From: Bacillota bacterium
GTDB lineage: Bacteria > Bacillota > JACPQU01
Assembly (NCBI GenBank): GCA_016190305.1
Contig: JACPQU010000156.1
Span: forward strand, 1-34,191
Reading direction: 5' to 3'
Length of the DNA: 34,191 nucleotides
Under the pieces are notes generated by a model. That model did not search any database. It worked only from the letters and a program-made list of their open reading frames with translations, and was not told the origin of the DNA. The number at the start of each line of letters is the position of its first letter. The first letter of the stretch is position 1. The translations under genes and the position numbers were made by a program. This document shows, piece by piece, positions 8,694 to 34,191 of the stretch.

Positions 8694-8699
8694 ACAAAC

Positions 8700-8878: not shown

Positions 8879-9085
8879 ATGGCAGACAAGAGGATCCCCG
8901 TGATTGATGCGGACCTGTGTACCGGTTGCAACATCTGCGTGGATGAGTGCCCGACAGATTCACTGGAACTCAACGCGGAAGATATTGCCGACCTGGTCCG
9001 CCCGGAGGATTGTGACGGCGAAGAGGAGTGCGGTACCTGCAGCGACGTCTGTCCATTTGAGGCAATCAGCTACAAGCCGGCCTGA
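8879..9085 (+). CDS. 2x[4Fe-4S] ferredoxin
   Basis: CTGCNICVDECP and CDGEEECGTCSDVCP in an acidic 68-aa protein; AAGGGGG RBS. Confidence 0.9.
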   Translation: MADKRIPVIDADLCTGCNICVDECPTDSLELNAEDIADLVRPEDCDGEEECGTCSDVCPFEAISYKPA

Positions 9086-9168
9086 ATATGCCGGATTGTA
9101 ACGGCCAAAGTCATACCCCGGGGCGAGTCGCGCAGGTACATCTGCCATGGCTCGCCCCGGCACTTGGA

Positions 9169-13702: not shown

Positions 13703-13715
13703 GGTGCCATTCTCC

Positions 13716-14759
13716 TTATTTCAAAGCCTCAAACATAATCATCACATTGGTTCCGCCGCATGAATCCAGATGAATAGTGCCTCTAAGCTGCTGAACCAGC
13801 ACGTTCACCAATGTCAATCCCAGTGATTCACAATTCTGTATATTGAATCCTTCTGGCATGCCGATACCATTGTCGCTGACTGTCACTTGAATTTTATTGC
13901 CGGGACTTTTTTTCATGGCAAGCCGGATTTCAGCCTTGCCGTCCACACACTTTGCCGAATCAGGAAAGGCGTGTTTGAGTGAATTGGAGATAAGTTCGTT
14001 GATGATCAGAGCACAGGGAATTACCGTATCGACACTGAGCGTAAAATCTTCAACACTTATGCTTGGTCTGATGCCCTTCTTGGTCGCCCCGTAAGATTGG
14101 AACAGGTTGGAAACCAGACCCGGAATGTAATCCCCGAGTTCAATCCATGCCAGGGATTGAGATTGGTATAGCTTTTGATGAATAAGCGCCATCGAATAAA
14201 TGCGGTCTTTACTCTCCTTGAACAATTCAATGGCCTGCTCGTCTTTTATGTAACCCATTTGCAGATTGAGCATGCTGTGGATGATCTGTAGGTTATTCTT
14301 AACGCGGTGGTGTATTTCTCTTAGAAGCGCATCCTTTTCTCGCAGTGAATCTTTGACCCGATCCTCAGCATGCCGGAGTTCCTGGTTGACGGCCTCGGTT
14401 TTTTCTCTCTCCATGTCAAAGTCATCGAGGATGTTCAACATTGCCCGCTGCGCATCTTCCAGCCGGGCCTTCTCCCCGGCAAAATCTTCCAGAATATTGA
14501 GCGCGGCGCGATATGTTACTTCAAGACGCTCTTTCTCATCGGCGAAGTCCTCAAGGATATTTAGCATCGCTTTTAGATAGTCCTCGACGTTAATCGTTGA
14601 TGTCACTTGTAAAGCTTCAGACATCAAGACTATCTCTTTCTCCCGGCTATCATCAACATTGGTAATCGCTGATTCTAGATGCAATGCTTCAGGCACCAGG
14701 CCCCCCCCTATCCAGCAATGAGCAATGAGTCCTGCTTTGAGATTCTCTAACCTCTCCAC
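13716..14759 (-). CDS. Cytoplasmic HisKA_2-type histidine kinase with N-terminal 21-aa repeats
   Basis: [13 protein letters not shown]-box, [21 protein letters not shown]. Start uncertain (GTG 14759 or ATG 14624). Confidence 0.9.
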
Positions 14760-14761
14760 CT

Positions 14762-17700
14762 CTAAGCTTCATCCTGTGCCACCGCTACCTCCTGTGCCAC
14801 CGCTACCTCCTTGAGCGAGGTATCCATTGGCGCACTTGCCTTCCGTATTAAAGAATTTTCCCTCTGCAATTCTTCGATCTCCTTCTTCAGTTCGATCATC
14901 TTCAACTCCCGCCCGACGGTCAACTTCTGAAACCGTTCCAGTTCGGCCTGGCGCTCGAGCTCGCGTGCCCGCTGCTCCTCACGGGCTCTCTGCTCGGCGA
15001 TCTTCGCCTCGGCCTCCTTCTGGGTGGTGATGTCACGAGCGGCGGCAAAGACGCCGAGAATATTTTCCTGAGCGTCCCGGTACACCGAGGCGTTGTAGAG
15101 AACATCAGTGAACCGGTCGTCCTTGTGTCTGATCGTCAGCGAATAGTTCATGACGTACCCTTTGGAAAAAACCTGCTCGTATCCTTTGCGCGCCTTATCC
15201 GGCTCCGTGAAGTAATCAGAGAAGTCCGTACCGATCAGCCTGTCCCGGGGGATGCCGGTCACGTCCACGGTCGCCTCGTTGACGTCGGTGATCTTCCCCT
15301 CGGCGCTGATGGTGACGAAGGGGTCGAGACTGGCCTCAATCAGGCTGCGGGCGTAGAGAGACGCCTGGCGAAGTTGTTCCTCCGCCTGTTTCTTTTCCGA
15401 AATGTCAGTGCTCATCAGCAGGTAGCCGAGCGGGTTGCCTGCGGCGTCGTTGCGGCGGGTGACCACCACGCTGGCGATAAAGCGGGAGCCATTCTTACGG
15501 ACGCGCACGAACTCCCCTTCCGCCAGGCCCTCCTCGAAGGCAATCTTCAGCATCTGGTCCACCGCCCCCGAGGCGAGGTCCTCGGGCGCATGGAGGATGC
15601 TCGAACTCATGCCGATGATCTCCTCCGCCTCATAGCCGTAGTTGCGTACCGCCCCCTCGTTCCAGGAGAGGATCCGGTAGTTGAGGTCCTTGCCGATGAT
15701 GGAATACTTGGTCGAACTCTCCAAAATGTTGTCCAGCAAGTTTTTCGTCTCGGCCAGTTCCCGCATCACCTTGTTCGATTCAGTGACGTCCCGGGCGGCA
15801 GCAAATACGCCCAGCACGTTGCCGCGCACATCCTTGTAGACCGAGGCGTTGTAGAGAACATCGGTCAGGTTGGCATCCCGGTTCCGGATCACCAAGGGGT
15901 AGTCGGTAACGAAGCCCTTCTCGAACACCTTCAGGTAGCCTTCCCGCGCTTTGTCCGGCTCCGTGAAGTAGTCCGAGAAGTCCGTCCCGATCAACCGGTC
16001 CCGGGGTACGCCCGTCACCTTCACGGTGGCCTCGTTGACGTCGGTGATCTTCCCTTCCGGGCTGATGGTGACCAGGGGGTCGAGATTGACCTCGACCAGG
16101 CTGCGGGCGTACTGGGAAGTCTGCTGCTGAGCCGTAACGTCACGGGCGGCGGCGAAGACACCAATCACGTTGCCGCGCACATCCTTGTAGACCGAGGCGT
16201 TGTAAAGGACGTCGGTCAGGTTGCCGTCCCGGTTCCGGATCACCAGGGGGTAGTCGGTGACGAAGCCTTTATCGAACACCTGCTGGTAACCCTCCCGGGC
16301 CTTGTCCGGCTCCGTGAAGTAGTCCGAAAAGTCCGTCCCGATCAGCTTGTCCCGGGGGATGCCTGTCACCTTCACGGTGGCCTCGTTGACGTCGGTGATC
16401 TTCCCCTCCGGGCTGATGGTGACCAGGGGGTCAAGGCTGGCCTCAATCAGGCTGCGGGCATACTGGGACGTCTGTTGCTGAACCGTGACGTCCCGGGCGG
16501 CGGCAAACACACCTGCCACGTTGCCGCGCATATCCTTGTAGACCGAAGCGTTATACAAAACATCCACCAGGTTGCCGTCCCAGTTGCGGATCACCAGGGG
16601 GTAGTCGGTGACGAAGCCCTTCTCGAACACCTGCTGGTAGCCTTCCCGCGCCTTGTCCGGCTCCGTGAAGTAGTCCGAGAAGTCAGTCCCGATCAGCTTG
16701 TCCCGGAGGATGCCTGTCACCTTCACGGTGGCCTCGTTAACGTCGGTGATCTTCCCTTCCGGGCTGATGGTGACGAAGGGGTCGAGGCTGGCCTCGATCA
16801 GGCTGCGGGAATAGAGCGACGCCGCCCGGAGCTGCTCCTCCGCCCGCATGCGCTCCAGGAGATCCTCCCGCACCAGCCGGGAGTTCTCCAGAGAGATGGC
16901 CGCCTGCGAGGTCAGCAGTTCCGTCATCTGGGTCTTCCCTGACGTGAACACCCCGTCCGACAGCCGGTTTTCCAGGTACAGGATGCCGATCATCTTCGAT
17001 TGCTTGATCACCGGGAGGCAGAGGACGGAGCAGAGCGTCAACTCCTGGACCTCCGGTTTGTCCTTGAACATCCCTTCCTGGCAGGCGTTGTCGAGGATCA
17101 CCCGCTCCCCCGTCCGGTACACATAGCGGACGATCGCCTTGCAGATGTCGGCGGCGTCTTCCAGCTTTTTGTTGGAAGTCTTGACCACCTCTTTTTCGGT
17201 GATGTGGCTTTCCGCCCGGATAAACAGGTTGCCCTCCTCGGCGATGAGTAAATAGCCGTGCTGCGCCCCGGAACTCTCGATCACCACGTTCATGATCTTT
17301 TTCAGCAGGGCGTCCTGCTCCATCTCGGCCGAGATGGCCAGGGACGATTTCATCAAGTAGCTGATGTCCAGGTTGGGCAAGGTGTAGGAGGCGGAATCCA
17401 CCTCGAACTGCGAGCGCAGTGACTTCTCCGTCTCCCCGGACAGGGTGTAGGCGACCCCCTCCATCTCCCTCTGCGGGGAATGGGTTTTGTCCCTGTCGAA
17501 ATACTGGGGATAGCGCTCGATCAGGTTGATCTCCTTCCGTTTGGCGCCGCATTGCTTGTAGAGGTGCACCGCCTCGATGAAGTAGATCCGCTCGGAGCAC
17601 TGGCTCTCGTGCAGGAGCATCTCACCAAGACACTCGTGGAGGTACCCTTCCAGAAATGTATACTTTTGTTCGTGGGCACTGTTGATGGCATCCAGATAGA

Positions 17701-20700
17701 GGTTCCGGGCCTCCTTGAAAGAACCGGTGACCCGCTCCAGCTCGGCGTACAGGAAGGCGAGGTAGGGCTTCAGGAGGGGCCCCAGCGCCGCCCACTGCTC
17801 GACCTTGGTGATGATCGGCAGGATATCCGCCAGCAACTCCTCCTGGTTGGCGAACCCGATACCTCTTTCATACATTTTCAGGGCGTTCAACACCAGGAAG
17901 ACGTGCCACTGCCGCTTCAGTACGTTGTCCGTCAGGCCCGACAGGTAGCGCCGCACCCCGTTCAAGAAGACTTGCGCCTGCTCGTACTCCCCGAAGTAGT
18001 AGTGCGTCAGCCCCATGTGCACGCAATAGCTGCCCGCCGAGGCGATGTGATTGTCCCGCTCCCACTGCCTCAGCTTCTCCTCCATGGAGATGGGGGCGTA
18101 GTCCTTCTTCATCGGGGCGATCCAGCCTGCCTGCATCGCCTCGGCCAGGCCGACCGAGAAGGAGAGGTGGTACCGGTGGGAGAACTGCAGGCACTCTTTG
18201 GCGTAGTCTTCGATCAGGCACAGGTTCGCTCCCTGCACCTGCAGGTTCCACATCAGGGGGCCATAGGAGAGGCCGGCGTTATACAGGTCGCCGCAGGTCT
18301 TCCCGCACTGGATCGACCGCTGGCAGTAGTCCACAATCTCCCACGGGCTTTTGCGCGAGTGCATGTTGCACCAGACAATCCCATTCATGCCCCGGGTGGC
18401 CCCGAATGTGTTCGGGTACTTGGCGGACAGGTCGCGCGCCAGGTCCTCGTACTTGAAGGCCTGGGCGAACTCCCCCTGCTCCCCGAGCTGCAGCCCCATG
18501 ATGCTGAAGGAATAGATCACCGACTCGTCCATGCCGCCCGCTAGGCAGTGCCGGGTCGACTGCGCCGCCGACAGGTAAAGCTGCGGCACCATTCCGGACA
18601 TGTACAGGTCGGGGATCAGCTCGCTGTAAAAGGCTAGTTCGATCTTGCTCCGGCGGTCGGTGGTGAATGGCATGTTCAGGATCGTCCCCCAGACGTCCTT
18701 CTCCTGGGTGTCGATCTCCGCCATCAGCTCCCGCAGCCTGCGGTCGGCCTCCTCGGGGCTGTCCGGGATGGCCTTGCCGAAATAGGCCAGGCCGCGGTTG
18801 GCCGTCTCGATCGCCTTGATAAAGTTGCCGATGCTGGACAAGGAGGTAGTCTGCTCCGCCAGGCACTCCGCCTTGTCCAGATCGGTCTTGGCATGGTCGA
18901 GCAGCCTGGTGAGCAGCCGCTCGGAATTCTCGTAATTACCGCACATCAACTCGGTCTTGGCAGCCTTTTGAAAAATCCTGAAGGTGCGTTCGTAGTGTTC
19001 CTCCTCCCAGCAGTTCGCCGGCAGCAATTCCCGGCTAAGGTCGAAATACTCGTTGGCCGCTGACGTGGCCAGGGAATCCAGGGCCTTGTTGCCGGCGTGG
19101 TAGTTGAGGTCGGACAGCAGGTACGCCGTCTGGTTATCCAGGTCGCCCTCCCGCCCCAGGTTGAGGTGAGACACGATGGCGAACAGGTCCTCGTTGCTTT
19201 CGATCTCCTGGACGCTGTCGGCCACCGTGCCCAGCAGGTGGTTCCCGATCTGCCAGTGGATCTGGCGCCGCCTCTCCGCCGAGATATTGGACAGCGTCGC
19301 CTCCTGGACCTTGTCGTGGATGAACTGCAACCGGCCACCCTTGTTCTCCATCAGCAGCCCCTGTCCGAGAGCCGGTTTCAGGACCTCGAAGGTTTCCATG
19401 AGGGTCATCCCGTTGATCAGGGCGATGTCAGCGGGCGAGAAGGTGTTGCCCATGCAGGCGCAGTACTCCAGCAGGGTGATCAGGTTCAGTGGCAGTTTCT
19501 GGATCTTGGAGTTGAACAGGGCGACCACGGTGTTCGGCATGTCGGACTTGCGGATCTTGTCGATGTCCCATCGCCACTGCCGTTTATCATCGAAGTACAG
19601 CAGATCCTCGTTGTAGAGATAGGACAGGCTCTCGCTGACGAACAGGGGGTTGCCATCGCTTAGCATGCTGATGAAATCCGACAGAGCCTTAGTCTGCGCC
19701 AGGGAAAAGTCCAGGATGTAAGAGACCATCTCGTGGCAGTATTGTGGCTTCAGGGGCCCCAGTTGGATTTCCTCCAGCGGCTGGCCGCACTCCTTAGCGT
19801 TCCGGATCAGCCTGGTCAGGGGGTGGCTGGAGTCCACCTCGTTATCGCGGTACGCCCCCAGGAAGAAGAGATAGGGGTGGTCCTGGTAGTTGGCGAAGAT
19901 ATTGGCCAGGAAGTCAAAGGAGGCGGCATCGCACCACTGCAGGTCGTCGATGAACAGGGTCAGGGGGTTCTCCTTGCTGGCCAGGCAGGTCAGGAACCGG
20001 TCGAAGGTATCGTGGAACCGGTTCAGCGATTCCACCGGGGGCAGGGGTTTGACCTCGGGCTGCGGGCCGATCAGCAGATCCAGCTCCGGGATCTCCTCTG
20101 TCAGCACCCTCCCGTTCTGCCCGATGGCGCCCAGGATCCTCTTCTTCCAGAACACCATCCGCTCGTCGCTCTCGGTCAGGAACGTCCGCATCAGGTTCCG
20201 GAGCGCCTGGATCAGGGAACTGTAAGGAATGTTCTTCTGGTAGACGTCGAACTTTCCCGACGTGAAATAACCCTTGTGCCTGACGATTGGTTTTTGCAGG
20301 TCCTGGATCAGGCGGGTCTTCCCGATCCCGGACAGCCCTGAGATGAATAGCGATTGAAACGCTCCCGCCGCCGCCTTCTCGTATTCTTCGAGGATAATCT
20401 CGGCCTCTTCTTCACGCCCGACCATCTTGGAGACGAAGTTGACTCGGTGCGTATAAACGCTGCTCTCCAGTGGGAATTCGCGGATGATGCCGGCGGCCAG
20501 ATACTCGTCCCGGCAGCGCACCAGGTCGGCCAGCAGCCCGCTGGCGTTCTGGTAGCGCTTCTCGGGCGCCTTGAGCATCAGCCTGGAGATGATCTTGCTA
20601 AGGATTACGGGAATCTCCGGGTTCAACTCATGGACCTCCGGCGCCTCCTCCGCCAGGTGAGAGTGGATCAACTCCAGGGGATCGTCGGAGGAGAACGGCA

Positions 20701-21319
20701 GCGAATTGGTCAGCATCTCGTAAAAGACGACCCCGAGTGAGTAGAGGTCGGAGGTGAAGGCCACGATATGGTTGATGCGCCCGGTTTGTTCGGGGGAGGT
20801 ATAGGCCAGGGTGTCCTTGACAAAGGAGCGCTCGAAGATGAAGTGGCTGACGTCCCGCACGTCGACGGCGCTGATGAAGTCCGTCAGCCGGATATCCAGC
20901 GTGTCCGAGTTGACCAGGATGTTGTGCGGCTTGATGCCGCCGTGGATGATGCCCGCCTCGTGGATCTTGTCCAGGGCCTCGGCCAGTTGGCAGGCGATGG
21001 TGAAAAAATCTTTCAGGGAAAGAGGATGCGTCTCCCGCAGGTCGTCGAGCGCCATTCCGTCGAAAAAGTCCTGGCTGACAAAGCAGATGTCATCCTTGAC
21101 GTTGAACGCCGTGGGCGTGATCACGAAGGGATTCTTGAGCACCCGCAGGTGCTCGATCCGCTGGCTGAACTGGGCGATCTTATAGTTCGACAAAAAGAAG
21201 GCTTTCAAGACCTTCAACACCAGCAGCCGCTGCGGGTCTTTCTTGTGGTATGCCTTGTAGATCACGGCCTCCTTGCTTTCAGCGATCTTTTCGACAATTG
21301 CGTAATTCGGGATGATCAT
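14762..21319 (-). CDS. Giant Ser/Thr-kinase-like + P-loop ATPase + helical + GAF + 5xPAS protein ending in a coiled coil, no His-kinase domain
   Basis: YTSPEQTGR and SDLYSLG kinase subdomains, Walker A GLSGIGKT, Walker [33 protein letters not shown], five PAS/PAC, C-terminal [11 protein letters not shown]; AAGGAG RBS. Confidence 0.92.
15761..16813 (-). repeat. Three tandem 351-bp PAS-coding repeats, with a fourth copy starting at 15355
   Basis: Y(S/A)RSL(I/V)E..LDP starts at 16813, 16462 and 16111 (exact 351-nt period) and again at 15355. Confidence 0.92.
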
Positions 21320-24855: not shown

Positions 24856-27800
24856 ATGTCCAAGGTGTCTTTCCGGTTGAACGGTGCGCCCCACGTAGCG
24901 GAGTACGTGCCGGGCACCACCCTGCTCCGATACCTTCGCGACGGACTTCATCTCACTGGTACCAAGGAAGCATGCTCCAGGGGCGAATGCGGGAGCTGTA
25001 CGGTGATCGTCGACGGCAGGCCCCGGCAGGCTTGCGTCCTGGGGATGAAGGAACTGGAGGGAACCTCGGTGGAGACCATCGAGGGCCTCTCCGTCACGAC
25101 CGGAAACCTCCACCCCCTGCAACAGGGCTTCATCGACGCCGGGGCGGTCCAGTGCGGCTATTGCACTCCGGGGATGATCATGGCCGCCAAGACCCTGCTC
25201 GACCGGAATCCCGATCCCACCCCCGGAGAGATCAAGGAGGCCGTGGCCGGAAATTACTGCCGCTGCACCGGCTACGCCCGGATCGTCGAGGCGGTGCAGC
25301 GGGGGGCGGCGATCATGCGGGGCCGGGGCGAACTTCCGCGCTCCCGGGACGAAGAGCTTCCCGGTCCGAAAGCGCCCGCGCCCGGCGCTTCGTTTCCGGC
25401 CTTTGGAACTGAGTTTCCAGTCTCCGGTACTTCTTTTATAAGCAAGGATCTTCCCGAGCGCGCCTCCGGGCGGCTTCTGTTCACGGACGATCTCTACCGG
25501 GAAAACCAGCTCGTCGCGCGTCCCCTTCTGGCGGCCCATCCGCACGCGGTTATCGAGCATCTTGATACCCGCGAGGCCATGGCCGTCCCCGGGGTGGCGG
25601 GGATCCTGACCTCGGCCGATGTCCCGGGACCGAACCGGTTCGGCCGGTTCGTGAAGGATCGCCCGCTCCTGGCCGACGGGCGAGTGCGTTTCATCGGGGA
25701 GCCGGTCGCCGTGGTCCTCGCCGGGAACCACCGGGCAGCGGACGAGGCCCTGAAGAAAATAAAGATCACTTACCGCTCTCTTCCGGTCATCTCCAGCCCG
25801 GAGGAGGCCCTGGCCGAGGGGGCGCCCCTGGTGCACGAATGGGGCCCGGTGGCGGCGCGGGCCACCGTCCGGGGCGGCGACGCTGCCGGCCGCTTCGCCT
25901 CCTCTCACGTGGTCATGGAGCGCTCCTATCGCGCCCCGTTCCAGGCCCACGGCTACATGGAGACGGAGACAGCCGCGGCCGAGCCCGACGGGGAGGGCGG
26001 CGTGATCATCTGGTCGCCCACCCAGGTTCCGACCTACGTCCAGGGCGTCCTGTCCGACAATCTCCTGCTCCCCAGGGAGAAGATCCGGATCAAGACCATG
26101 CCGGTGGGCGGCGCCTTCGGCGGGAAGAACGACGTCATGCTCGAGGCATTCGTGGCCCTGGGCGCCTTGAAGACCGGCCGCCCGGTGAAGATGGCCTTCA
26201 ACCGGGGGGAATCCCTTCGCTTCGGCACCAAGGCCAACGCCGTCTCCCTGTGGCTGAAGACCGGGGCGACCAGGGACGGAAAGCTCACCGCGCTCCAGGG
26301 CCGGATGATCATGGACTCCGGGGCCTACGCCGCCGTCTCCCCCCTCGTCGCCCAGCAGGTGGCCATCCTGTCCAACGGCCCTTACCTCTGGTCCGACCTT
26401 GACCTGGAGGTCGTAGCCGTGACCACCAACAACCTCATCGGCAGCGCCCTCCGGGGATTCTGCAGCGAGCGGTTCCAGTTCGGGGTTGAAACCCAGTTGG
26501 AACTGATGGCGGAGGAGCTGGGCATCGATCCCCTGGAGTTCCGGATCCGAAACGTGGTCCGGGAGGGGTCCCGCCTCCCCACCGGGCAGGTCCTGACCGG
26601 AAAGATCTCCGCAGCCCGGTGCCTGGAAAAGCTGGGGGAGATCCTGGCGGGTGCCGGAAAAGGTGCCGGGAGCGGAAACGAAACGGGAACGCCCGTACCG
26701 GGCCCCGGCAAACGGATCGGGGTGGGGATCGGCTGCTCCATGAAGAGCGTCGGGGTCGGCCTCGGTTTCAAAGAGTCGGTGGATACGGTCATTGAGCTGG
26801 TCCCTGGAGAGACGCGAGGGTCCGGCTGGGCCGGCGGGGCCAACGAGTCCGGCAGAACCGGCGGGGCCGGAAATGCCAGGGGGGCCGGAGCTGAGCTGTA
26901 CATAACCACCTCGGTGGTGGACCTGGGGCAGGGGGTCAGCACGGTGCTGCCCCAGATCGTCTCCGCCGTCACCGGGATCCGTCCGGACCGGATCCGCATC
27001 TTCCACGCCGACACCGCCGTGGTGGGCGGGGCCTTCGGGGCCGCCCAGCGCCAGACCTACATGGTGGGGAACGCCGTCGTGGAAACGGCGGAGCGTTTCC
27101 TGTCCGTTCTGAAGGAATTCGTGGATGCCGAAACGGGGATTCAGTCGGAAAGCGTCCGGATCCTCGGAGACCGGGTGGCCGCCCGGATCGATGGGGAGGA
27201 GCGGATGCTCATGACCCTTGCTCAGCTACCCGCCCTCGCTGAGAAACGTGGTTTTGATCTCCGGGTCACCCACCGCTACGAGGGCCCCCTGACCTCTTCT
27301 CCCTGGGTCGAGGTGGACGTCTCGGGTCCCGTCCAGAGCTGGTCCGCCTACGATACGGAGGACGGCGGCACCATTAAAACCGATGTCGCCGGCGGCACCG
27401 GCGGCAGTGTAACCGGAGTCCCGCAGCATGCCCTCGCCGGGGAAACGCTTGCCGGGAAATCACCCCACTACATGGCCCTCACCTTTTACGTGCAGGCGGC
27501 GATCGTCGAGGTGGACGAGGCGACGGGCAAGGTCCGCCCCCACAAGATCATCGTCGTCCAGGATTCAGGGCGCGCCCTGAACCCCGACCGTATCCGGGCC
27601 AACATGGAGGGGGGCTGCGTGATGGGAACCGGGATGGCCCTGGCGGAGGAAATGGTCATGAAGGATGGACGGCTGCTCACCGACACCTTCCGCAAGATGC
27701 ACCTGCCCACCATCGCGGATGCCCCGGAGGTGGAGGTGTACCTCGTGGAGGAGCCCGATCCCCACGGCCCGTTCGGCGCCAAGGGCCTGGCCGAGGGATC

Positions 27801-28005
27801 TCTGGTCGCCACCATCCCGGCGGTGCTCAATGCCGTCTGCAACGCCACCGGGAGCCGGATCTACGAGTTCCCGGCGACCCCGGAGCGGGTGATGGAGAGC
27901 CTGAGGGAGGGCTCCCCTGAGGCGGCAGGCGACTCTTCCCGAGGAACCATTCCAGAGGATTCCTCCCCAATAAAAGAGGACTTCACGCCAGGGGAAACCT
28001 GCTGA
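24856..28005 (+). CDS. Fused [2Fe-2S] + molybdopterin xanthine/aldehyde oxidoreductase family protein (Mop-like, no FAD domain)
   Basis: TGTKEACSRGECGSCTV, QCGYCTPG, NYCRCTGY, HGYMETE, VGGAFGGK, DLGQG, PFGAKGLAE. Confidence 0.93.
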   Translation: MSKVSFRLNGAPHVAEYVPGTTLLRYLRDGLHLTGTKEACSRGECGSCTVIVDGRPRQACVLGMKELEGTSVETIEGLSVTTGNLHPLQQGFIDAGAVQCGYCTPGMIMAAKTLLDRNPDPTPGEIKEAVAGNYCRCTGYARIVEAVQRGAAIMRGRGELPRSRDEELPGPKAPAPGASFPAFGTEFPVSGTSFISKDLPERASGRLLFTDDLYRENQLVARPLLAAHPHAVIEHLDTREAMAVPGVAGILTSADVPGPNRFGRFVKDRPLLADGRVRFIGEPVAVVLAGNHRAADEALKKIKITYRSLPVISSPEEALAEGAPLVHEWGPVAARATVRGGDAAGRFASSHVVMERSYRAPFQAHGYMETETAAAEPDGEGGVIIWSPTQVPTYVQGVLSDNLLLPREKIRIKTMPVGGAFGGKNDVMLEAFVALGALKTGRPVKMAFNRGESLRFGTKANAVSLWLKTGATRDGKLTALQGRMIMDSGAYAAVSPLVAQQVAILSNGPYLWSDLDLEVVAVTTNNLIGSALRGFCSERFQFGVETQLELMAEELGIDPLEFRIRNVVREGSRLPTGQVLTGKISAARCLEKLGEILAGAGKGAGSGNETGTPVPGPGKRIGVGIGCSMKSVGVGLGFKESVDTVIELVPGETRGSGWAGGANESGRTGGAGNARGAGAELYITTSVVDLGQGVSTVLPQIVSAVTGIRPDRIRIFHADTAVVGGAFGAAQRQTYMVGNAVVETAERFLSVLKEFVDAETGIQSESVRILGDRVAARIDGEERMLMTLAQLPALAEKRGFDLRVTHRYEGPLTSSPWVEVDVSGPVQSWSAYDTEDGGTIKTDVAGGTGGSVTGVPQHALAGETLAGKSPHYMALTFYVQAAIVEVDEATGKVRPHKIIVVQDSGRALNPDRIRANMEGGCVMGTGMALAEEMVMKDGRLLTDTFRKMHLPTIADAPEVEVYLVEEPDPHGPFGAKGLAEGSLVATIPAVLNAVCNATGSRIYEFPATPERVMESLREGSPEAAGDSSRGTIPEDSSPIKEDFTPGETC

Positions 28006-28032: not shown

Positions 28033-28079
28033 GGACATCCCCCCGGGCACGGGAACGGACAGCAGCCGGGGGGATGTCC
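28033..28079. terminator. Inverted repeat between convergent genes
   Basis: GGACATCCCCCCGG ... CCGGGGGGATGTCC. Confidence 0.6.
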
Positions 28080-28121: not shown

Positions 28122-29297
28122 TCAGGGCTCGACCACAATCGTGCCGTGCATACCGGCTTCGTAGTGGCCCGGGATCCGGCAAGCCAGTTCGTACGTGCCC
28201 GCTTGCGTGGGGATCAGGTACAGATCCACCTGCTCTCCCTCGAAAACCTCGATCTCATTGAAGGTCGGACCTTTGACCTCGCTCATTATGTCCTGGGCTT
28301 TGCGGACCGCCGCGGTGCGGAAGAACTCGGCGGCGTCGGCCTCGTGTTTGACCGTGCCCTTGTTGATCAGTTGCAGCTTATACGGGACGCCGACCTTGAG
28401 GGGCACGTCCTGGGGCTTGAAGTACATTTCGCCCACTTCGATATCCACCGTCTGCAAGCTCTTCCAATCAGCCGCCTGCACCCGGGCTTCCGCATCCACC
28501 ACGTTTGTCACCGTGGAGACCTTGCCGAGCTCGATCCGGGGCGAACTGGGCGCGGCGCCGGTCACGGTGATCGTCCCGAACATGCCGGCTTCCTTATGCC
28601 CCGGGATCTCGCAGACCAGTTCGTAGGTCCCCGGGATCAGCGGCACAAAGTAGAGGTCCGTCCGTTCACCGGCGAAAACCTCGATCTCCGTGGCGTAGGG
28701 CAGCTTGAATTCGCCCTGGTCGTCCTGCACCTTCCGCAGGGCGATGGAACGGTAGAACTGTCCGGCCGTGAACTCGTGCTTCACCGCGCCGATGTTGTGG
28801 ATTTCGAGCTTGTAAGGCTTTCCCGCTTCGAAGGTAAGGTTCTTGGGCGTGAAGGCCATCTCGCTCAGATCCACGCGCGCCGTCTCCATCTGTTTCCAGT
28901 CGGCGGCGGCCACGAAGTCAGCGGCGTTGGCCACGTATTCGTCATCGGCCACACCGCTCACGGCAGCCGGGAAGGTCACATCGGAGAGGTCAGCCCCCTT
29001 CGGCCCGACTACCACGGTCTGGGTGTCCGCATTCCACCGCACCTGCACATCCAGGGCCTCGGCGATGAAGCGGATCGGCACCATGGTGCGGCCGTTGATG
29101 ATGACCGGAGCGGCATCCAGATCCATCGGCTGGTCATCCACCGCGGCCTTCTGGCTGCCGAGCTTGAGGACGACGATCTTCTGGCCGGACGGCGCCGTTT
29201 CGGCGCTCACCATACCGATAGCAATCAGGGACAAGCCCAGGATTAAAATGCAGATCGGAATCAGCGCACTTCTCTTTAATCTCATCTTTGAACTCAT
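28122..29297 (-). CDS. Exported protein: copper-amine-oxidase-N/stalk domain plus two type-1 cupredoxin domains
   Basis: Signal peptide, APVIINGRTMVPIRFIAEAL, then KHEF...CEIPGHKEAGM and KHEA...CRIPGHYEAGM; AAGGAG RBS. Confidence 0.88.
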   Translation of the reverse strand: MSSKMRLKRSALIPICILILGLSLIAIGMVSAETAPSGQKIVVLKLGSQKAAVDDQPMDLDAAPVIINGRTMVPIRFIAEALDVQVRWNADTQTVVVGPKGADLSDVTFPAAVSGVADDEYVANAADFVAAADWKQMETARVDLSEMAFTPKNLTFEAGKPYKLEIHNIGAVKHEFTAGQFYRSIALRKVQDDQGEFKLPYATEIEVFAGERTDLYFVPLIPGTYELVCEIPGHKEAGMFGTITVTGAAPSSPRIELGKVSTVTNVVDAEARVQAADWKSLQTVDIEVGEMYFKPQDVPLKVGVPYKLQLINKGTVKHEADAAEFFRTAAVRKAQDIMSEVKGPTFNEIEVFEGEQVDLYLIPTQAGTYELACRIPGHYEAGMHGTIVVEP

Positions 29298-29371
29298 GGT
29301 TCACTCTCCTTTCTGAGTGGAAAACAGCAGGGTGACCCTTCAGGTTCCGGTACAGACGGCCGGAATCCGAT

Positions 29372-31246
29372 TTACTTGACAATCAAGGTGCCGACCATGT
29401 CCGGATGGCCCCTGCGTCCGCCGCCGCCCTGAAGTTCCCCGATCCCGCACCAGACGGTGCAGACGATGGGGAACTCGCCGGTTTTGTCTGCCGTGAACTC
29501 AACCGCCACCTCCTTTCCGGAGGGAACCTCCTGCTCGATTCCATAAGCCTCGATACCGATGCCGTGTTTGTCCAAGTCTTGCCCGGCAGGCTTGACCAGG
29601 AGGCCCGGAGATAGCCTCCCGGAGTCAGTGTTCACCAGCAGCCGGACCCGGTCACCCTTCTTGACCTCCACCTTGCCCGGATCCCAGCCGAAATGATAAG
29701 CAGTCAATGGGATCTCCTTGAGCGCCGGCTCGGCGGGCTTGGCCGTTGTTGCAGCCGGCGTCCTGCTCGCCAGGACTTCGGTCCGCAATTCCTGCACCCG
29801 CTGGTCGACCTGGACAATGGTGGCCTTGAGCTGGGTCAGGCTCTCCACGTTCTCCTGCAGCCCGGCCACCAGTGCGGCCAGCCGGTCCTGCTTGGCCGAA
29901 AGAGGCACGATCTCTCTCTCCAGGGACTGGAGGCCCTGAGCGACGACGGCCAGGTCACCGCGGATCTGACCTTCCGCCGCGATCCGCTGCTCGTGCTCCG
30001 CGTTGGCGCGGAAGCCGTCGGCAATCCATGTAAGGGCAAGCAACAGGGCCACAACGCCGACGGCCACTTTCCAGACGGTACCGTTCATATCTCCCTCCTC
30101 CCTCTCTTCAATGAAGTCGTCGGCGGCCCAGACGGAGGCGCCTCCGTGGGTTCCGCCCATAGCGTGGGCTTCCCGCGCGGCCGCACCAGCCAACCGTTGC
30201 GTGGTTGCGGCCGCCGCTGCGAGACCCGCCCTTGCCCACCGCGTGCGGACACCGGAGATTACCGAGTACGAGAATACGGTCCAGACGAAGGCCAGGATGG
30301 CTGCGAGTGTCCAATTGCCGAGGAATGGGATGTACAGGTCGCGGGGCTCGAACTCATACCGGTTGACCGCTGACTGGGGGACCTCCACGGTGGAGATGGC
30401 CTCGCCGCCCCGGTAGGCCGCGTTGCCTTCGAACACGGCCCTGACTTCGATATCCCCCTCGCGTCGAGGTGTGTAGGCAAGCCGGGCGATCCCGTTCGCA
30501 TCGGTAAGAACCGCCCCCAGCTTGACCCCTTCTGCTCCAAGGAAGGATCCTGCCCTGTAGAAGAGCACGCGGGCGCCCTTGAGCGGCTCCCCGGTTTCGG
30601 CCTGCAGAGCGGCTGAAATCTCGATACCGGCCTTCCCGGCCGCGCCGACCACCTGGATCCGGGAAGGCTGGGCCTTGGCGGCTGCGGAGTCCACTGTAAG
30701 AAAGCCGTTTTGCAGCAGCTTGTGACCCTCGCACTGCCGGACACACTTCATCGGGATCTTTCCGGTTTCAGTCGCCGTGAAGGACACCGTGCTCTCCTGG
30801 TTTCCCTCGTTCAGAACTCCGCTTTTCAGGTCCAGGGTCGGGAAGTAGACCTGGTGGGGATTGTCGTGTCCGAGGTCCCCGTCCCCGTAAACGAAGGTGA
30901 TCTCCACCCGCTCGCCGGCCCGCGCCTCGAGCGCGCCGCCGTCGAGCACCTTGAACCCTTCGTGGCCCACCTGGACCCGGATCCGGGTTCCGGATCCCGA
31001 GGCGGCACCCGTCAGGACCCCCGTCCCGGCCCCCGCCGCCGTCTCTGTCCCCCGGCCGGCCTCGTGGGACGCGGCTTCCGCGATCCAGCCCGCTCCGAAG
31101 AGAGTAACGAGGGCGGCCGTCGAAAGGGCTAAAAGAATCCTGGCCCGGTGCGCGACCCAACGCCTGCCCCAGCCTTTGCCCAAACTGTTGCCCCTACCCT
31201 TGCCCCAACGCCAGCCCCACCTCAGATCCAAACGCATCCGCTTCAT
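29372..31246 (-). CDS. Membrane-anchored multi-domain copper protein: cupredoxin, Ig-like, TM, TM, coiled coil, CuA-like cupredoxin; may be two fused genes
   Basis: Start placed at ATG 31246, overlapping the upstream stop. NPH...CVRQCEGH and HGIGI...CTVWC-x13-HPDM motifs; strong internal RBS and in-frame ATG at 30088. Confidence 0.75.
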   Translation of the reverse strand: MKRMRLDLRWGWRWGKGRGNSLGKGWGRRWVAHRARILLALSTAALVTLFGAGWIAEAASHEAGRGTETAAGAGTGVLTGAASGSGTRIRVQVGHEGFKVLDGGALEARAGERVEITFVYGDGDLGHDNPHQVYFPTLDLKSGVLNEGNQESTVSFTATETGKIPMKCVRQCEGHKLLQNGFLTVDSAAAKAQPSRIQVVGAAGKAGIEISAALQAETGEPLKGARVLFYRAGSFLGAEGVKLGAVLTDANGIARLAYTPRREGDIEVRAVFEGNAAYRGGEAISTVEVPQSAVNRYEFEPRDLYIPFLGNWTLAAILAFVWTVFSYSVISGVRTRWARAGLAAAAATTQRLAGAAAREAHAMGGTHGGASVWAADDFIEEREEGDMNGTVWKVAVGVVALLLALTWIADGFRANAEHEQRIAAEGQIRGDLAVVAQGLQSLEREIVPLSAKQDRLAALVAGLQENVESLTQLKATIVQVDQRVQELRTEVLASRTPAATTAKPAEPALKEIPLTAYHFGWDPGKVEVKKGDRVRLLVNTDSGRLSPGLLVKPAGQDLDKHGIGIEAYGIEQEVPSGKEVAVEFTADKTGEFPIVCTVWCGIGELQGGGGRRGHPDMVGTLIVK

Positions 31247-32631
31247 CTCCCCGCACCTCCCCCGGGCGCGTAACCGGGTACGGGACCGGCAGGCCGCGGC
31301 GCCGAGCGTTTCCGTTCCGCCAGGTCCCTGGCATCCGATTCGATCTCCAGCTCCTCGGCCATCTCCCACATGGGGATCAGGGGAACGGACTTGCCCAGGG
31401 TTCCCACGATCAGGGCGAAGCCGGCGAAGGTGGCGGCGACGATGGAGATCTCCACCCAGGTCGGGCTGTAGCTCCCCCAGGGGGTGGGTTGCAGCGGCAC
31501 CGCCATGGAGGGGATGACGATGAAGTAGCGCTTGATCCACATGAAGATGTTGATCAGTATCGAGGCAATGCCGATCCCCAGCATGTTCCTGGTCCGGGGC
31601 AGGGACAGGAGCAACAGCGGGATGGCCATGCCGCCGATCCAGTAGCTCCAGAAGTAACCGGAGTACGGGCCGTGGAAGAGGGCTTGCAGGAGCCCCAGTT
31701 CATGCTCGGACATCTTGTAGACGGCGGTGATGTACTCCGCGGAGGTGAAGTAGAAGTAGACCAGTCCCGCCGCCAGGAGGATGTTCCCCAGCCAGCGGAA
31801 GTGGTTCGGGGTGATGTACTTCTGGAAGCGGAAGGTCTTCCGGAAGATCCACATCTCGGTGACCACGGCGGCGATCCCCGAGTAGATGGCCCCGATTACG
31901 AAATAGGGGCCGAAGATGGTGCTGTGCCACCCGGCGCGCCACGTCATCGCGAAGATGAAGGAGACGACGGTATGGACGCTGATCATCACGGCGATGATCA
32001 TCATGCACATGGCCCGGATCCCCTTGTTCAGCAGCCGCCACTGCTCAGGAGTCCCCTGCCACCCAAGGGAGAAGGTGTGGAAGAACCAGCGGCGCAGCGG
32101 GCCCACCTTGTCGCTGAGCCGGTCCCGGCAGGTGGCCAGGTCCGGGATGAGCGGCAGGTACAGGTAGATCAAGGTGCCGGTGAAGTAAGATGTCACCGAG
32201 AGGAGGTCCCAGAGGATCGGCGAGTTGAGCTGGCCATGGTAGATGAGGTTCAGAATCCGGTCCGGCCGGCCCAGGTCGACCACCGGCATGGCGCCGCCGA
32301 CCAGGAGGGCGCCGACCGTCATGAACTCGGCCATCCGGACGACCGGGGTGCGCCAGCCGACACCGGTCAGGCGGAGCACGGCGGAGATGAAGGTCCCCGC
32401 GTGGCTGATCCCGATCCAGAAAACGAAGTTGGTGATGTAGAATCCCCAGGAGACGTGGTTCCGCATCCCGGTGACCTCCAGGCCGTTCCGGAGCTGGACG
32501 CTCCAGGCGTAAAGGGCCCAGAGGATGACGGCGACCGCCGCCAGGACGAAGAGAATGAAGGTCCTGCTTCGTTCCGTCACCGGGCGCAGCACGGCGGCCT
32601 CCATTTCCCGCACTTCAGCTTCCGCGTTCAA
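31243..32631 (-). CDS. NrfD/PsrC-family quinol dehydrogenase, ActC-like
   Basis: WGFYITNFVFWIGISHAGT, DLGRP, SPILWD, VHTVVS, GWHSTIFGPYFVIGAIYSG; about 10 TM segments. Confidence 0.92.
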   Translation of the reverse strand: MNAEAEVREMEAAVLRPVTERSRTFILFVLAAVAVILWALYAWSVQLRNGLEVTGMRNHVSWGFYITNFVFWIGISHAGTFISAVLRLTGVGWRTPVVRMAEFMTVGALLVGGAMPVVDLGRPDRILNLIYHGQLNSPILWDLLSVTSYFTGTLIYLYLPLIPDLATCRDRLSDKVGPLRRWFFHTFSLGWQGTPEQWRLLNKGIRAMCMMIIAVMISVHTVVSFIFAMTWRAGWHSTIFGPYFVIGAIYSGIAAVVTEMWIFRKTFRFQKYITPNHFRWLGNILLAAGLVYFYFTSAEYITAVYKMSEHELGLLQALFHGPYSGYFWSYWIGGMAIPLLLLSLPRTRNMLGIGIASILINIFMWIKRYFIVIPSMAVPLQPTPWGSYSPTWVEISIVAATFAGFALIVGTLGKSVPLIPMWEMAEELEIESDARDLAERKRSAPRPAGPVPGYAPGGGAGR

Positions 32632-32637
32632 CCATGC

Positions 32638-33444
32638 TCACCTCCCGTAGTCCTCACCGTGACCGGGTAGGTAGAAGACCCGCGGCCGGGTCCCCAGCTC
32701 TTCCTTGTCCCGGTAGGCGTGACGCTCGTGTAAGAAAGCGGACAATCGCACCGCCTCGGTGCCGTTGGTGGCCACGTCCTCCGTCAGGTCTCCCATCCAG
32801 AGGGCCTGCATCGGACAGCCCTCCACGCAGGCGGGGAGCTTGCCCTGCCGCAGCCGGTGACCGCAGAACATGCACTTTTCAGCGGTGCCGATGCGATGGG
32901 GAACCGGGTATTCGGGCGAGTAGCTGGCGAAGGCGGCGCCGGGCGGATTCTCCGGTTTCCCCCAGTTGAAGTAGCGGGCCTGGAAGGGGCAGGCGGCGAG
33001 GCAGAAGCGGCAGCCGATGCACCGCTCGTGGTCGATGAGCACCAGGCCGTCGGGGTTGTAATAGGTGGCCTCCACCGGGCAGACGTGCTCGCAGGGAGCC
33101 TTCTCGCAGTGCTGGCAGGGCCGGGGCTTGAAGTAGGTGCCTCCGCCCTCGTCGGGGGCCTCGTAGACCTCCATCCAGTTCTGCTCTTCCGGAACGAAGT
33201 GTTCCTTCTTGCAGGCCGCCTTGCACCGGGGGGGCTTGTCGATGGTGGTGCAGCCCTCGCACTTCTTGCGATCCACCACCATCACCCACTGGCGGCCGGT
33301 GCTCTGCAGGGTTTGCTCGCGGGCGGTGCCCTTGGCGTCCCCGGCCTGGCCGGCCGCTGCCAGGAACGGAATCACACCGGAGGCAACTCCTGCTCCGCCG
33401 GCGCCGATCCATCGCAGCAACTGGCGCCTGGTAACATCTGGCAA
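32638..33444 (-). CDS. Tat-exported 4Fe-4S dicluster protein (NrfC/DsrO/ActB2-like)
   Basis: TRRQLL twin-arginine signal; CEGC...CKAAC, CQHCEKAPCEHVCP, CIGCRFCLAACP, CMFC...ACVEGCP. Confidence 0.92.
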   Translation of the reverse strand: MPDVTRRQLLRWIGAGGAGVASGVIPFLAAAGQAGDAKGTAREQTLQSTGRQWVMVVDRKKCEGCTTIDKPPRCKAACKKEHFVPEEQNWMEVYEAPDEGGGTYFKPRPCQHCEKAPCEHVCPVEATYYNPDGLVLIDHERCIGCRFCLAACPFQARYFNWGKPENPPGAAFASYSPEYPVPHRIGTAEKCMFCGHRLRQGKLPACVEGCPMQALWMGDLTEDVATNGTEAVRLSAFLHERHAYRDKEELGTRPRVFYLPGHGEDYGR

Positions 33445-33520
33445 CTTGTGTCACCTCCCTGTTTGACTCCAGCATAGCCGCCGGTGATTCCGCGACACAT
33501 CGTAACCGGGACGTATTCTT

Positions 33521-33578
33521 AAAAAGGGAAAGACGCCATTTTGGGAATGGCGTCTTTCCGTCTTTTGAATGGCGTCTT
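33521..33578. promoter_or_regulatory. Inverted plus direct repeat upstream of the Fe-S/NrfD/copper operon (operator or terminator)
   Basis: Perfect 14-bp IR GGAAAGACGCCATT-N5-AATGGCGTCTTTCC (33527-33559); GAATGGCGTCTT repeats at 33545 and 33567; minus-strand T-run at 33521-33525. Confidence 0.55.
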
Positions 33579-33720
33579 AACTGCCTGCGCTTCCCGGTCT
33601 AAACCACGGTTTTGGTCATGGTCGGCAGCCCTTGGGCTCGCAGCTAACCATCATCCGAGGATGATAAACAACTACCAGTACCTCATCCCGACAGGGCGGC
33701 AGTGGAATCCGGATAGCATG

Positions 33721-33806
33721 GGGAACCTGGAAAACTGGGAAACCTGGACAGCCTGGGGAGCCCGGAAAGCCTGGGGAACCCGGAGACTCCACGGACTCCG
33801 GACCCC
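33721..33806. repeat. Degenerate 9-bp tandem repeats
   Basis: gaaaactgg gaaacctgg acagcctgg ggagcccgg aaagcctgg ggaacccgg. Confidence 0.6.
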
Positions 33807-33813: not shown

Positions 33814-34191
33814 CTAAACCTGCTCCGCCAGACCGCGCCGGACGGCGTACTGGACGAGTTCCGCCTTGTTGCGTAATCCCAGCTTGGCCATGAGCTTGCT
33901 GCGGTGACGCTCCACGGTATGGGGACTGATGGTGAGTTCACGGGCGATCTCCCGGCCTGTCTTCCCTGTCGCGATCAAGCGGAGCACCTCCGCCTCCCGA
34001 TCCGAGAGGGAGGCCGCTCCCATCAAGACACGGGAGCGCCGCTGCCGGATGAAATCGGACACAAGCAGGCGGGCCAGGGAAGGATCCAGGTAGGTTTCCC
34101 CCCGGGAAGCCATCCGGACCGCCTGGAGCAGATCATCCGGATCCGCTCCCTTCAGAAGATAGCCTGTAGCACCGGCCTCCAGGAGGCGGAA
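33814..34191 (-). CDS. NarL/LuxR-family response regulator, 3' part
   Basis: EAGATGYLLK receiver tail and LSDREAEVLRLIATG...EIARELTISPHTVERHR HTH; 5' end is outside the window. Confidence 0.93.
   Translation of the reverse strand, partial: FRLLEAGATGYLLKGADPDDLLQAVRMASRGETYLDPSLARLLVSDFIRQRRSRVLMGAASLSDREAEVLRLIATGKTGREIARELTISPHTVERHRSKLMAKLGLRNKAELVQYAVRRGLAEQV

Follow-up and report, generated by a model that had tools for sequence, protein, structure and literature searches.

Introduction

On the usual view of complex III and its substitutes, haem proteins are the first to receive their electrons, and alternative complex III (ACIII; ActABCDEF) reaches the blue copper protein auracyanin by way of cytochromes. 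In the passages of PMC10873879 that deal with it, auracyanin appears as the periplasmic acceptor of ACIII, and Table 2 of PMC8076601 assigns the quinol site of the membrane subunit ActC to His139, Ser164, Asp169 and Asp253 within a list of 23 residues for the quinol site and the ion paths. The homologous Qrc is treated in parts of PMC13059093 and PMC6303296 as a cytochrome c3:menaquinone oxidoreductase, and NosGH resemble NapGH according to the relevant text of PMC3475470. Here we examine a four-gene operon, G1 to G4, on the minus strand of contig C121 of a Bacillota bacterium, a metagenome-assembled genome (MAG) of 1.89 Mb in 204 contigs that is 79% complete; the window is the whole of that contig (34,191 nucleotides). 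A first-pass annotation had read the operon as an ACIII-like quinol-oxidising module wired to copper proteins instead of cytochromes c. We find an NrfC-type Fe-S protein and an ActC-like NrfD protein encoded together with two exported or anchored cupredoxin proteins. With slightly better than even confidence, we take the operon to be a haem-free, molybdopterin-free relative of ACIII and Qrc, a quinol:cupredoxin oxidoreductase that would feed terminal enzymes with a copper entry site.

No published description of an NrfCD-cupredoxin complex was found in the full-text literature, subscription journals and supplements not being covered by that search. In the main text of the NrfD-family review PMC8076601, the words 'copper' and 'cupredoxin' have 0 occurrences, and only two papers were found that hold both 'NrfD' and 'cupredoxin', both of them on other subjects.

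A four-gene operon joins an NrfC-NrfD pair to cupredoxin proteins

All four genes lie on the minus strand and are as tightly coupled as had been noted. G1 (32638-33444; 268 residues) encodes a Tat-exported Fe-S protein of the NrfC/DsrO/ActB2 type with four Cys4 motifs, and G2 (31243-32631; 462 residues) an ActC-like NrfD, the quinone-reactive membrane subunit. G3 (29372-31246; 624 residues) encodes a protein in which a signal/anchor segment, a cupredoxin domain, an immunoglobulin-like (Ig) domain, a transmembrane hairpin, a predicted coiled coil and a second cupredoxin domain follow one another, and G4 (28122-29297; 391 residues) an exported protein with a Cu_amine_oxidN1 domain and two type-1 cupredoxins. 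Six nucleotides separate G1 from G2 and 74 separate G3 from G4, the stop codon of G2 overlaps the start codon of G3 in an ATGA, and a GGAGG-type site stands 6-9 nt 5' of each of the four starts. Because the gene order recurs across other genomes, as set out below, this arrangement is not chance.

The CxxCH motif is absent from G1-G4, and likewise from every roughly called gene of the window; a Pfam scan of the operon gave no molybdopterin or hydrogenase subunit, so that both absences reported earlier stand. Genes here and at the related loci were called with a GC3-based caller with start trimming, which merges or misses some genes, and the per-locus counts given below (CxxCH, clusters) are therefore approximate.

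G1 and G2 are relatives of ActB and ActC

The Fe-S subunit G1 (Pfam Fer4_11, 72 bits) carries a twin-arginine motif, TRRQLL, and 16 Cys, and R6, R7 and all 16 Cys are invariant among 11 homologues, in keeping with its earlier description as a Tat 4Fe-4S protein; the 16 Cys are predicted to be the ligands of four Fe-S clusters. Its NCBIfam scores all fall under the respective cut-offs (DsrO 179.2 against 200, NrfC 139.5 against 377.6, QrcC 122.9 against 400), and its matches in the PDB are PsrB (4e-31) and the C-terminal parts of ActB (3e-26 to 7e-15).

For G2 (Pfam NrfD, 110 bits), the only solved relatives at E ≤ 0.01 are four ActC chains of ACIII, namely 6f0k_C (3e-64), 6lod_C, 6btm_C and 8k9e_C, with the worst of them at 5e-56. 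We mapped the Rhodothermus ActC residues tabulated by Calisto and Pereira (PMC8076601, Table 2) onto G2 via a HMMER alignment and found that 18 of the 23 listed there are identical and one is conservatively replaced (S180 to T153), which upholds the proposed relation to ACIII. Kept in G2 are the entire N-side half-channel, S137 and D142 of the quinol site and the gating R368, and the departures are H139 to D119, D253 to I226, Y323 to T296 and E394 to K367. The multihaem-associated NrfD relatives described below deviate from ActC at the same two quinol-site positions (D119, V/I226). The conserved proton half-channel and gating Arg suggest that the G2 step could couple to the membrane potential.

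G3 combines an anchor with two candidate copper heads

We propose that G3 is the third subunit and the bearer of putative redox heads. Its N-terminal hydrophobic segment is probably a signal peptide, with cleavage after AEA as read by eye. Beyond it, and again on the minus strand, come an N-terminal cupredoxin domain (residues 84-188; 30683-30997), an Ig-like domain (residues 193-292; 30371-30670; Big_1 24.9 bits, under the cut-off), a membrane hairpin with a predicted cytoplasmic loop (residues 307-416; 29999-30328; hydropathy segments 307-335 and 388-416) and a C-terminal CuA-like cupredoxin (residues 506-624; 29375-29731). The AlphaFold2 model of G3 has a mean predicted local distance difference test score (pLDDT) of 78.9 and contains helices at 312-363 and 387-493; the long helix after the membrane hairpin is probably, on this model, a coiled coil. 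Folded alone, the N-terminal part reaches a pLDDT of 93.6, and both cupredoxin domains are modelled with high confidence. Co-folding prediction of G1 (residues 40-268), G2 (1-445) and G3 (84-345) scored 0.56, with one control at 0.44, a result that weighs on neither side of the question of binding.

The candidate ligands of the N-terminal domain, H131-x36-C168-x3-C172-x2-H175, include no Met, and H131, C168 and C172 are invariant in 43 family members. When compared by VIA-align, this domain lies closest to the electron-transfer cupredoxin domain of Hyphomicrobium NirK, a three-domain nitrite reductase (Z 12.9; root-mean-square deviation (rmsd) 2.2, 98 residues aligned), with lower scores against NosZ (CuA domain; Z 11.4) and subunit II of ba3 (Z 10.3). 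By structure, the Ig domain matches those of intimin and of the macroglobulin type (Z 9-11). The C-terminal domain scores 33.5 bits with Cupredoxin_1, 60 bits with the CuA part of the NCBIfam L-NosZ model and 3e-4 against ba3 CuA in the PDB, and by VIA-align its neighbours are nitrosocyanin (Z 13.3), the ba3 CuA structure 2cua (Z 12.8; rmsd 1.5, 93 aligned, 32% identity) and NosZ (Z about 12). The copper chaperone CupA is also found among the structural neighbours of the G3 domains (Z 10.6-11.6). The C-terminal ligand set, H561-x34-C596-x3-C600-x13-H614-x2-M617, is invariant in 4 fused homologues.

A CuA centre in a cupredoxin fold has the motif H-x(about 34)-C-x3-C-x3-H-x2-M, a spacing that we checked against NosZ and the cupredoxins of contig C147 of this genome. 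Neither G3 site is a canonical CuA site, because the N-terminal one has no Met and an altered spacing and the C-terminal one a 10-residue insertion. All four cupredoxin domains of the first-pass annotation are present, and the two type-1 ligand sets of G4 are invariant; the N-terminal G3 site that it called CuA-like lacks the Met and is spaced differently.

A full search with G3 residues 1-340 placed 489 proteins within E ≤ 0.001, of which 158 also passed E ≤ 1e-10 and 9 passed E ≤ 1e-30; many of the best 150 matches are about 300 residues long. Three matches are fused homologues of the G3 type (P0122, with 575 residues and 49% identity, P0125 and P0126), and these keep all candidate ligands of both domains. 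A homologue search at near-G3 length gave the window's own G3 alone, a genome-contig scan with G3 alone as the query gave no relative, and the same scan with an alignment of four fused G3 forms gave one locus, L206. In a metagenome scan yielding 15 loci, the queries matched only the G3 C-terminal and NosZ CuA domains and neither NrfC nor NrfD, and the 40 same-phylum genomes nearest in the collection held no G3 homologue detectable with the query used. These 40 genomes share only the phylum with the present one and each belongs to another family, so within that collection the MAG seems isolated at the class or order level. The protein atlas name for the nearest cluster is 'hypothetical protein'.

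G4 is a tandem type-1 cupredoxin protein of a widespread family

G4, also read from the minus strand, consists of a signal peptide, a Cu_amine_oxidN1 domain (29010-29189; Pfam 65.5 bits) and two type-1 cupredoxins, the first at 28557-28898 (H174/C229-x4-H234-x4-M239) and the second at 28125-28475 (H318/C373-x4-H378-x4-M383). It scores 65.2 bits with Pfam Cupredoxin_1 and 53 bits with Copper-bind (PF00127), where the cut-off is 21.2, and both His/Cys/His/Met sets are invariant in 24 aligned homologues; a family score over the cut-off together with complete ligand sets marks G4 as a type-1 blue copper protein, predicted to bind copper at both sites. The best solved match is auracyanin B (2.5e-4). 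Of the candidates scored, 401 are homologous to the core at E ≤ 0.001, mostly with about 320 residues and about 55% identity; five full-length look-alikes that include the amine-oxidase-N domain are 58-63% identical. In place of this domain, 15 of the 24 aligned homologues have, as judged by eye, a lipobox-like Cys behind the signal sequence.

A locus search with G4 alone mostly found the amine-oxidase-N domain or distant cupredoxins, and a query in the form of an alignment worked. With the G4-only query, the amine-oxidase-N part was matched at 14 of 25 loci, all 14 in Clostridia, Bacilli or other Bacillota, a distribution that fits a Gram-positive host without proving it; we infer only that this domain could be a wall tether.

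What recurs most steadily beside G4-family genes is a pair of genes for a HAMP/HisKA_3 kinase and a NarL-type regulator, which in 8 annotated loci lie immediately upstream. An NrfCD pair lies nearby in 7 of 79 G4-like loci, six of which also have a G3N-type gene, defined as a match to the profile of G3's N-terminal family. Since this is so small a share, the G4 family must mostly work with something else, and we see it as a widespread electron carrier, probably held at the membrane or wall, that is only sometimes paired with an NrfCD complex. At one G4-family locus (L145), a cytochrome b gene lies downstream.

Related loci fall into a multihaem clade and a branch with a variable third subunit

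A scan of one genome per species yielded 305 loci with G2 relatives, of which the best 80 were analysed. At 63 of these 80, same-strand genes with at least three CxxCH motifs lie within 5 kb, which agrees with the premise that NrfCD modules are normally wired to cytochromes, and 12 of the 80 have no CxxCH at all. At multihaem loci the genes recurrently run from a pentahaem protein through one of about 820 residues, the Fe-S protein and NrfD to a tetrahaem protein. A G3N-type gene directly follows NrfCD in ten of the 80 loci (L019-L025, L033, L041 and L061); these ten are the loci most similar to G2 and come from MAGs labelled Symbiobacterium, Actinomycetota and Chloroflexota. In all, a G3N-type gene immediately follows NrfD at 16 independent loci from several phyla, and MAGs carrying the family are labelled Chloroflexota, Actinomycetota, Bacillota, Acidobacteriota and Nitrososphaerota. 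The order of Fe-S protein, NrfD and third subunit is therefore conserved, and the loss of gene order that would have spoken against the earlier proposal is not seen.

We built a quick tree of 85 NrfD sequences by maximum likelihood, without named reference sequences and with L020, L021 and L023 dropped by the coverage filter. In it the multihaem type forms one clade (63-65 rows; Shimodaira-Hasegawa-like approximate likelihood ratio support (SH-aLRT) 98-99) and the G3N type lies outside it. G2 groups, with support of 100, with the sequences of L019 (a Symbiobacterium MAG) and of L022 and L024 (Actinomycetota MAGs).

The G3N-type clusters differ in what accompanies the Ig and anchor parts. In three Chloroflexota loci, L159-L161, a kinase, a regulator, a tandem cupredoxin, the Fe-S protein, NrfD, the G3N-type protein and a monohaem cytochrome c are encoded on one strand, and in L159 and L161 cytochrome c biogenesis genes come next. 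A monohaem cytochrome c gene also follows the G3N-type gene in the Symbiobacterium locus, and L033 holds a cytochrome c/EB_dh protein. One haem c motif was thus counted in 5 of 17 G3N-type clusters, and a multihaem protein in none, which means that being haem-free is not a family trait. The monohaem cytochrome c stands where G3 carries its C-terminal CuA-like domain. The Actinomycetota third subunit has kept the Ig domain and membrane hairpin, has no Cys pair and is His-rich in its outer parts. From the cytochrome c, Cys-free and CuA-like variants it follows that the head of the third subunit is exchangeable, with the window as the copper-only version. The earlier notion of a copper-only conduit accordingly survives for the window's branch, which has cupredoxin-type proteins and no multihaem protein, as the trait of a variant and not of the family.

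Three Actinomycetota third subunits (L022:7176-8432, L024:5844-7295 and L020:3546-4808) have the topology of G3, His-rich acidic repeats of the HAEEE type and a C-terminal 'VVPGKPEES', which we take to resemble planctomycete cytochrome c domains without CxxCH. L206, from a MAG labelled Thaumarchaeota archaeon, encodes at 6289-9679 an Fe-S protein, an NrfD 51% identical to G2 and a 398-residue G3N-type protein; CxxCH occurs nowhere on this 12.5-kb contig, and the MAG label, as given by binning, is that of an ammonia-oxidiser-type archaeon.

A HisKA_3 kinase and/or a NarL-type regulator stands beside seven of nine annotated NrfD loci, and the cluster at the Symbiobacterium locus is adjoined by genes for a small cupredoxin and an ATPase of the CopA type. 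Among 12 aligned sensor kinases, the sensor part shows no conserved residue and hence no clue to the signal. MctS and MctR were the best NCBIfam names for kinase and regulator, far under the cut-off and uninformative.

Candidate partners elsewhere in the genome

Among terminal enzymes with a copper entry site, NosZ is the only one found in this 79%-complete genome. Its gene lies on contig C148 (L013:1-9082) and encodes 590 residues with a lipoprotein-type signal and a canonical CuA motif (TIGR04244, 605 bits against a cut-off of 625); a kinase and a NarL-type regulator are encoded upstream, and downstream lie the gene of a membrane protein with four helices and nosD, which the contig end truncates. 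The regulator beside the operon shares 39% identity with its counterpart upstream of nosZ. C148 at its end and C147 at its start overlap by 406 bp with 96.6% identity, which places a NapH-like protein and its flanking cupredoxins a few kb from nosZ: on C147 (L014:1-2500), a NapH-like protein of 494 residues (Fer4_5) is encoded between two small membrane-anchored cupredoxins with the canonical C-x3-C-x3-H-x2-M. Possibly this is the NosGH/NosC donor set in a version with copper in place of cytochrome.

Besides the one in the operon, five NrfD matches lie on other contigs. One belongs to a second NrfC-NrfD cluster on the minus strand of C140 (L015:4454-10279), likewise free of CxxCH, which encodes an Fe-S protein of 266 residues, an NrfD of 434 residues, a 207-residue Ig/anchor protein that matches the G3N profile minus the cupredoxin part, a plastocyanin-like protein of 182 residues and two further proteins of no assigned family (202 and 530 residues). 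Genome-wide there are eleven cupredoxin-domain matches, and CxxCH occurs in nine of 1915 roughly called genes. The single multihaem candidate has five motifs (C55:21455-23233) and lies just upstream of two cytochrome c assembly genes.

The search for partners that had been recommended thus gave nosZ here; of the 17 genomes in which a G3N-type cluster occurs, 15 have COX1 and 6 have NosZ. In the 79%-complete genome no NirK, cytochrome b or cytochrome bd turned up, nor did a full-length COX1, absences that carry little weight at this completeness. The window itself encodes at 8220-9085 (plus strand) a 157-residue membrane open reading frame and, after it, a 71-residue 2x[4Fe-4S] ferredoxin. The match of the former to the COX1 profile (41.6 bits) is confined to the first 149 profile positions, and it is either a remnant or a small protein resembling COX1.

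Surroundings of the operon in the window

Upstream of the operon, a NarL/LuxR-type response regulator (33814-34191, minus strand; Pfam GerE 73.6 bits) is cut by the contig end, leaving its C-terminal 125 residues; a NarL-type two-component system at this place probably controls the operon. Between regulator gene and operon lies a terminator-like hairpin on the minus strand (33527-33559; 14-pair stem and T-run), which implies that the operon has its own promoter, at about 33445-33526; a simple scan for sigma-70-like promoters gave 0 against 0.8 expected. A second such hairpin lies 3' of G4 (28036-28057, minus strand; 7-pair stem and T-run). It is weak by itself, with 6 terminator-like sites found in the region against 4.0 expected. 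At 33704-33784, between the regulator stop codon and the upstream hairpin, an 18-nt unit is repeated in tandem (4.6 copies, 76% matches), with a 9-nt sub-period, TGGGAAACC.

The molybdenum-cofactor gene nearest to the operon is on the opposite strand and convergent with it (24856-28005, plus strand); it encodes a 1049-residue 2Fe-2S and molybdenum-cofactor fusion of the xanthine dehydrogenase/aerobic CO dehydrogenase family. In the Chloroflexia locus L027 (10491-12692), a split pair of this family follows NrfD on the same strand; with two cases only, this may be coincidence. Further away, at 11786-21319 on the minus strand, are a 2185-residue protein (Ser/Thr kinase, AAA_16, GAF and several PAS domains) and two histidine kinases, in a region where G+C dips to 0.49-0.54 at 12-16 kb against about 0.64 elsewhere.

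Discussion

In the path that we favour, menaquinol would be oxidised at a site of G2 on the outer face, electrons would run along the four predicted Fe-S clusters of G1 to the CuA-like centre or centres of membrane-anchored G3 and onward to the two type-1 coppers of exported G4, and they would end at an enzyme with a copper entry site, which could be NosZ in this genome and a haem-copper oxidase in most relatives. The operon would then work, by analogy, as ACIII does with auracyanin. Such a path presupposes that G1-G4 form one complex, that the cupredoxin sites bind copper and that electrons leave the quinol, all of which we consider plausible.

Several observations weigh against it. Two of the four ActC quinol-site residues are replaced in G2 (H139 by D119, D253 by I226). 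In the N-terminal site of G3, the spacing is C-x3-C-x2-H with Leu or Gln at the Met position of CuA, and in the C-terminal site 13 residues, not 3, separate the second Cys from the His. Among relatives, five of the 17 clusters use a monohaem cytochrome c and the Actinomycetota third subunit is without any Cys pair; NrfCD accompanies only the seven G4-like loci counted above, and NosZ occurs in only six of the 17 genomes with related clusters. NosZ has a candidate donor set of its own nearby, in the NapH-like protein and two canonical CuA cupredoxins, and the two-component system and the weak similarity of G4 to CopI (90 bits, cut-off 280) would fit a stress system too.

The same complex could instead be a dedicated supply for N2O respiration, with electrons passing from quinol through G1-G3 and G4 to the CuA of NosZ, which would make the operon a nos accessory module and not a general substitute for complex III. 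That nosZ is the sole copper-entry terminal enzyme found, that the best score of the G3 C-terminal domain is with the CuA part of L-NosZ and that the two regulators are paralogues all speak for this; operon and nosZ nevertheless lie on different contigs, NosZ already has the NapH-like and CuA-cupredoxin genes as neighbours, COX1 is far the commoner enzyme in genomes with related clusters, and, the genome being 79% complete, the assembly may just lack an oxidase. We judge this narrower role unlikely.

Also improbable, in our estimate, is operation in reverse, as in Qrc, by which electrons supplied from outside, by Fe(II), Cu(I), Mn(II) or another cell as partner, would pass through the copper proteins and reduce the quinone pool, driven by the membrane potential. 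The homology to Qrc and the conserved proton-path residues of G2 would suit this direction, and uphill flow through ACIII is proposed for iron oxidisers in the pertinent part of PMC13741234. G4 also has weak matches, under the cut-offs, to the rusticyanin (47.5 bits) and sulfocyanin (40.5) models. The potentials of type-1 and CuA centres, however, are usually far above that of menaquinone, which would make the reduction of quinone strongly uphill. Neither the operon nor its relatives show an outer component for electron uptake, and the genome holds an electron-needing reductase, NosZ; no metal oxidase was noticed, though none was searched for.

We give little credence to a copper-stress or copper-handling system, in which exported proteins would bind or redox-cycle copper in the manner of CopI, powered by quinol and induced by the two-component system. 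CopI is indeed the best NCBIfam model for G4 (90.4 bits), the tandem-cupredoxin gene has a sensor kinase and regulator directly upstream in the 8 annotated loci, the Symbiobacterium locus has its copper ATPase and small cupredoxin alongside, and CupA is a structural neighbour of the G3 domains. Yet the CopI score is far under its cut-off, a copper ATPase is present at only one of nine annotated NrfD loci, and no His, Met or Cys is conserved among the sensor domains of the kinases. Copper sensors are usually of the OmpR type, and the NarL-type regulators found here resemble those for nitrate and anaerobiosis. A four-cluster Fe-S wire with a proton-path NrfD is, moreover, a respiratory design.

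That there is no single machine, only an NrfCD pair and unrelated exported copper proteins in one operon, is very improbable: the co-folding of G1-G3 gives no in-silico support for contact and 72 of 79 G4-like loci are without NrfCD, but G2 and G3 overlap, a G3N-type gene directly follows NrfD at 16 independent loci, and an NrfCD pair alone would have neither electron acceptor nor donor.

Beyond the operon, it is a tentative idea, which we put at well under an even chance, that these loci represent an undescribed family of minimal three-subunit quinol dehydrogenases, in which an Ig/anchor subunit with an exchangeable redox head would join a wire of the NrfC type and an ActC-like NrfD, the window holding the all-copper form. 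The heads of such a family would be, as an equally doubtful assignment, paired CuA-type centres in the window, a monohaem cytochrome c in Chloroflexota and Symbiobacterium and a Cys-free His-rich domain in Actinomycetota.

A quinol dehydrogenase with a copper exit would explain how the quinone pool is linked to N2O reductase or haem-copper oxidases in bacteria and archaea that have few cytochromes c or none. If the proposal is right, there would be a proton-coupled substitute for complex III in an N2O-respiring bacterium almost devoid of cytochromes c, and CuA-type centres would act outside terminal oxidases and N2O reductase; it would bear on the copper as against iron demand of N2O consumption and provide a small three-subunit model for the coupling of quinol chemistry to the membrane potential by NrfD-type proteins.

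Comparison with known systems

Among described systems, ACIII (6F0K, 6BTM, 6LOD and 8K9E) is alike in that G2 is nearest to ActC and keeps most residues of the quinol site and proton path, G1 is homologous to the C-terminal part of ActB and G4 resembles a blue copper acceptor of the auracyanin type. It differs in that the operon has no pentahaem ActA and monohaem ActE, with the cupredoxin/Ig/anchor protein in the place of the cytochromes, that G1 covers only about positions 680-970 of ActB and has no molybdopterin-like ActB1 domain, and that the operon contains neither ActD nor the second NrfD-like protein, ActF. Since ActA/E, ActB1, ActF and half of the quinol-site residues fail, the operon is not a member of ACIII.

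The multihaem NrfCD clusters of Nitrospirota, Acidobacteriota, Planctomycetota and others hold the closest relatives of G2 outside its own branch (42-48% identity) and share with it the D119 and V/I226 variants and the order of Fe-S protein and NrfD, but they encode multihaem cytochromes and a large extra subunit and form a separate clade. Qrc and Dsr share the pairing of Fe-S protein and NrfD, and the top NCBIfam scores are those of DsrO for G1 and DsrP for G2. Both remain under their cut-offs (DsrP 115.6 against 350), however, the neighbours are cupredoxin proteins, and neither DsrJ nor DsrMK is encoded in the operon, a genome-wide search for DsrMK not having been made. From QrcABCD the operon is set apart by the low QrcC score and by QrcD (52.6 against 570), by the absence of QrcA/B and by an operon free of haem motifs; from NrfABCD, by the low NrfC score and the absence of NrfA/NrfB-type CxxCH from the operon.

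The NosGH/NapGH of clade II nos clusters are alike in possibly feeding NosZ from quinol, and differ in belonging to another membrane protein family and in that the genome's NapH-like gene lies on C147, outside the operon. The idea that NosGH are NrfCD-like was dropped: in the relevant text of PMC3475470 they are NapGH-like, and G2 is Pfam NrfD. The operon does not belong to any described nos or cox system, a membership that the first-pass annotation had named as a ground for refuting its proposal.

With CopI, G4 shares the type-1 cupredoxin fold and the best NCBIfam name, and departs from it in its scores (90.4 bits against 280 and 40.1 against 200) and as a two-domain tandem. The C-terminal part of G3 is built like the CuA domains of COX2 and NosZ, with a transmembrane helix and then a cupredoxin with H-x34-C-x3-C...H-x2-M that is 32% identical to ba3 CuA; it differs from them in the 10-residue insertion before the second His and in being fused to a quinol-dehydrogenase subunit, not to an oxidase or N2O reductase. 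What is particular to the present operon is that one anchor subunit contains two fused CuA-like domains, that the carrier has an amine-oxidase-N domain and that the host is very poor in cytochrome c.

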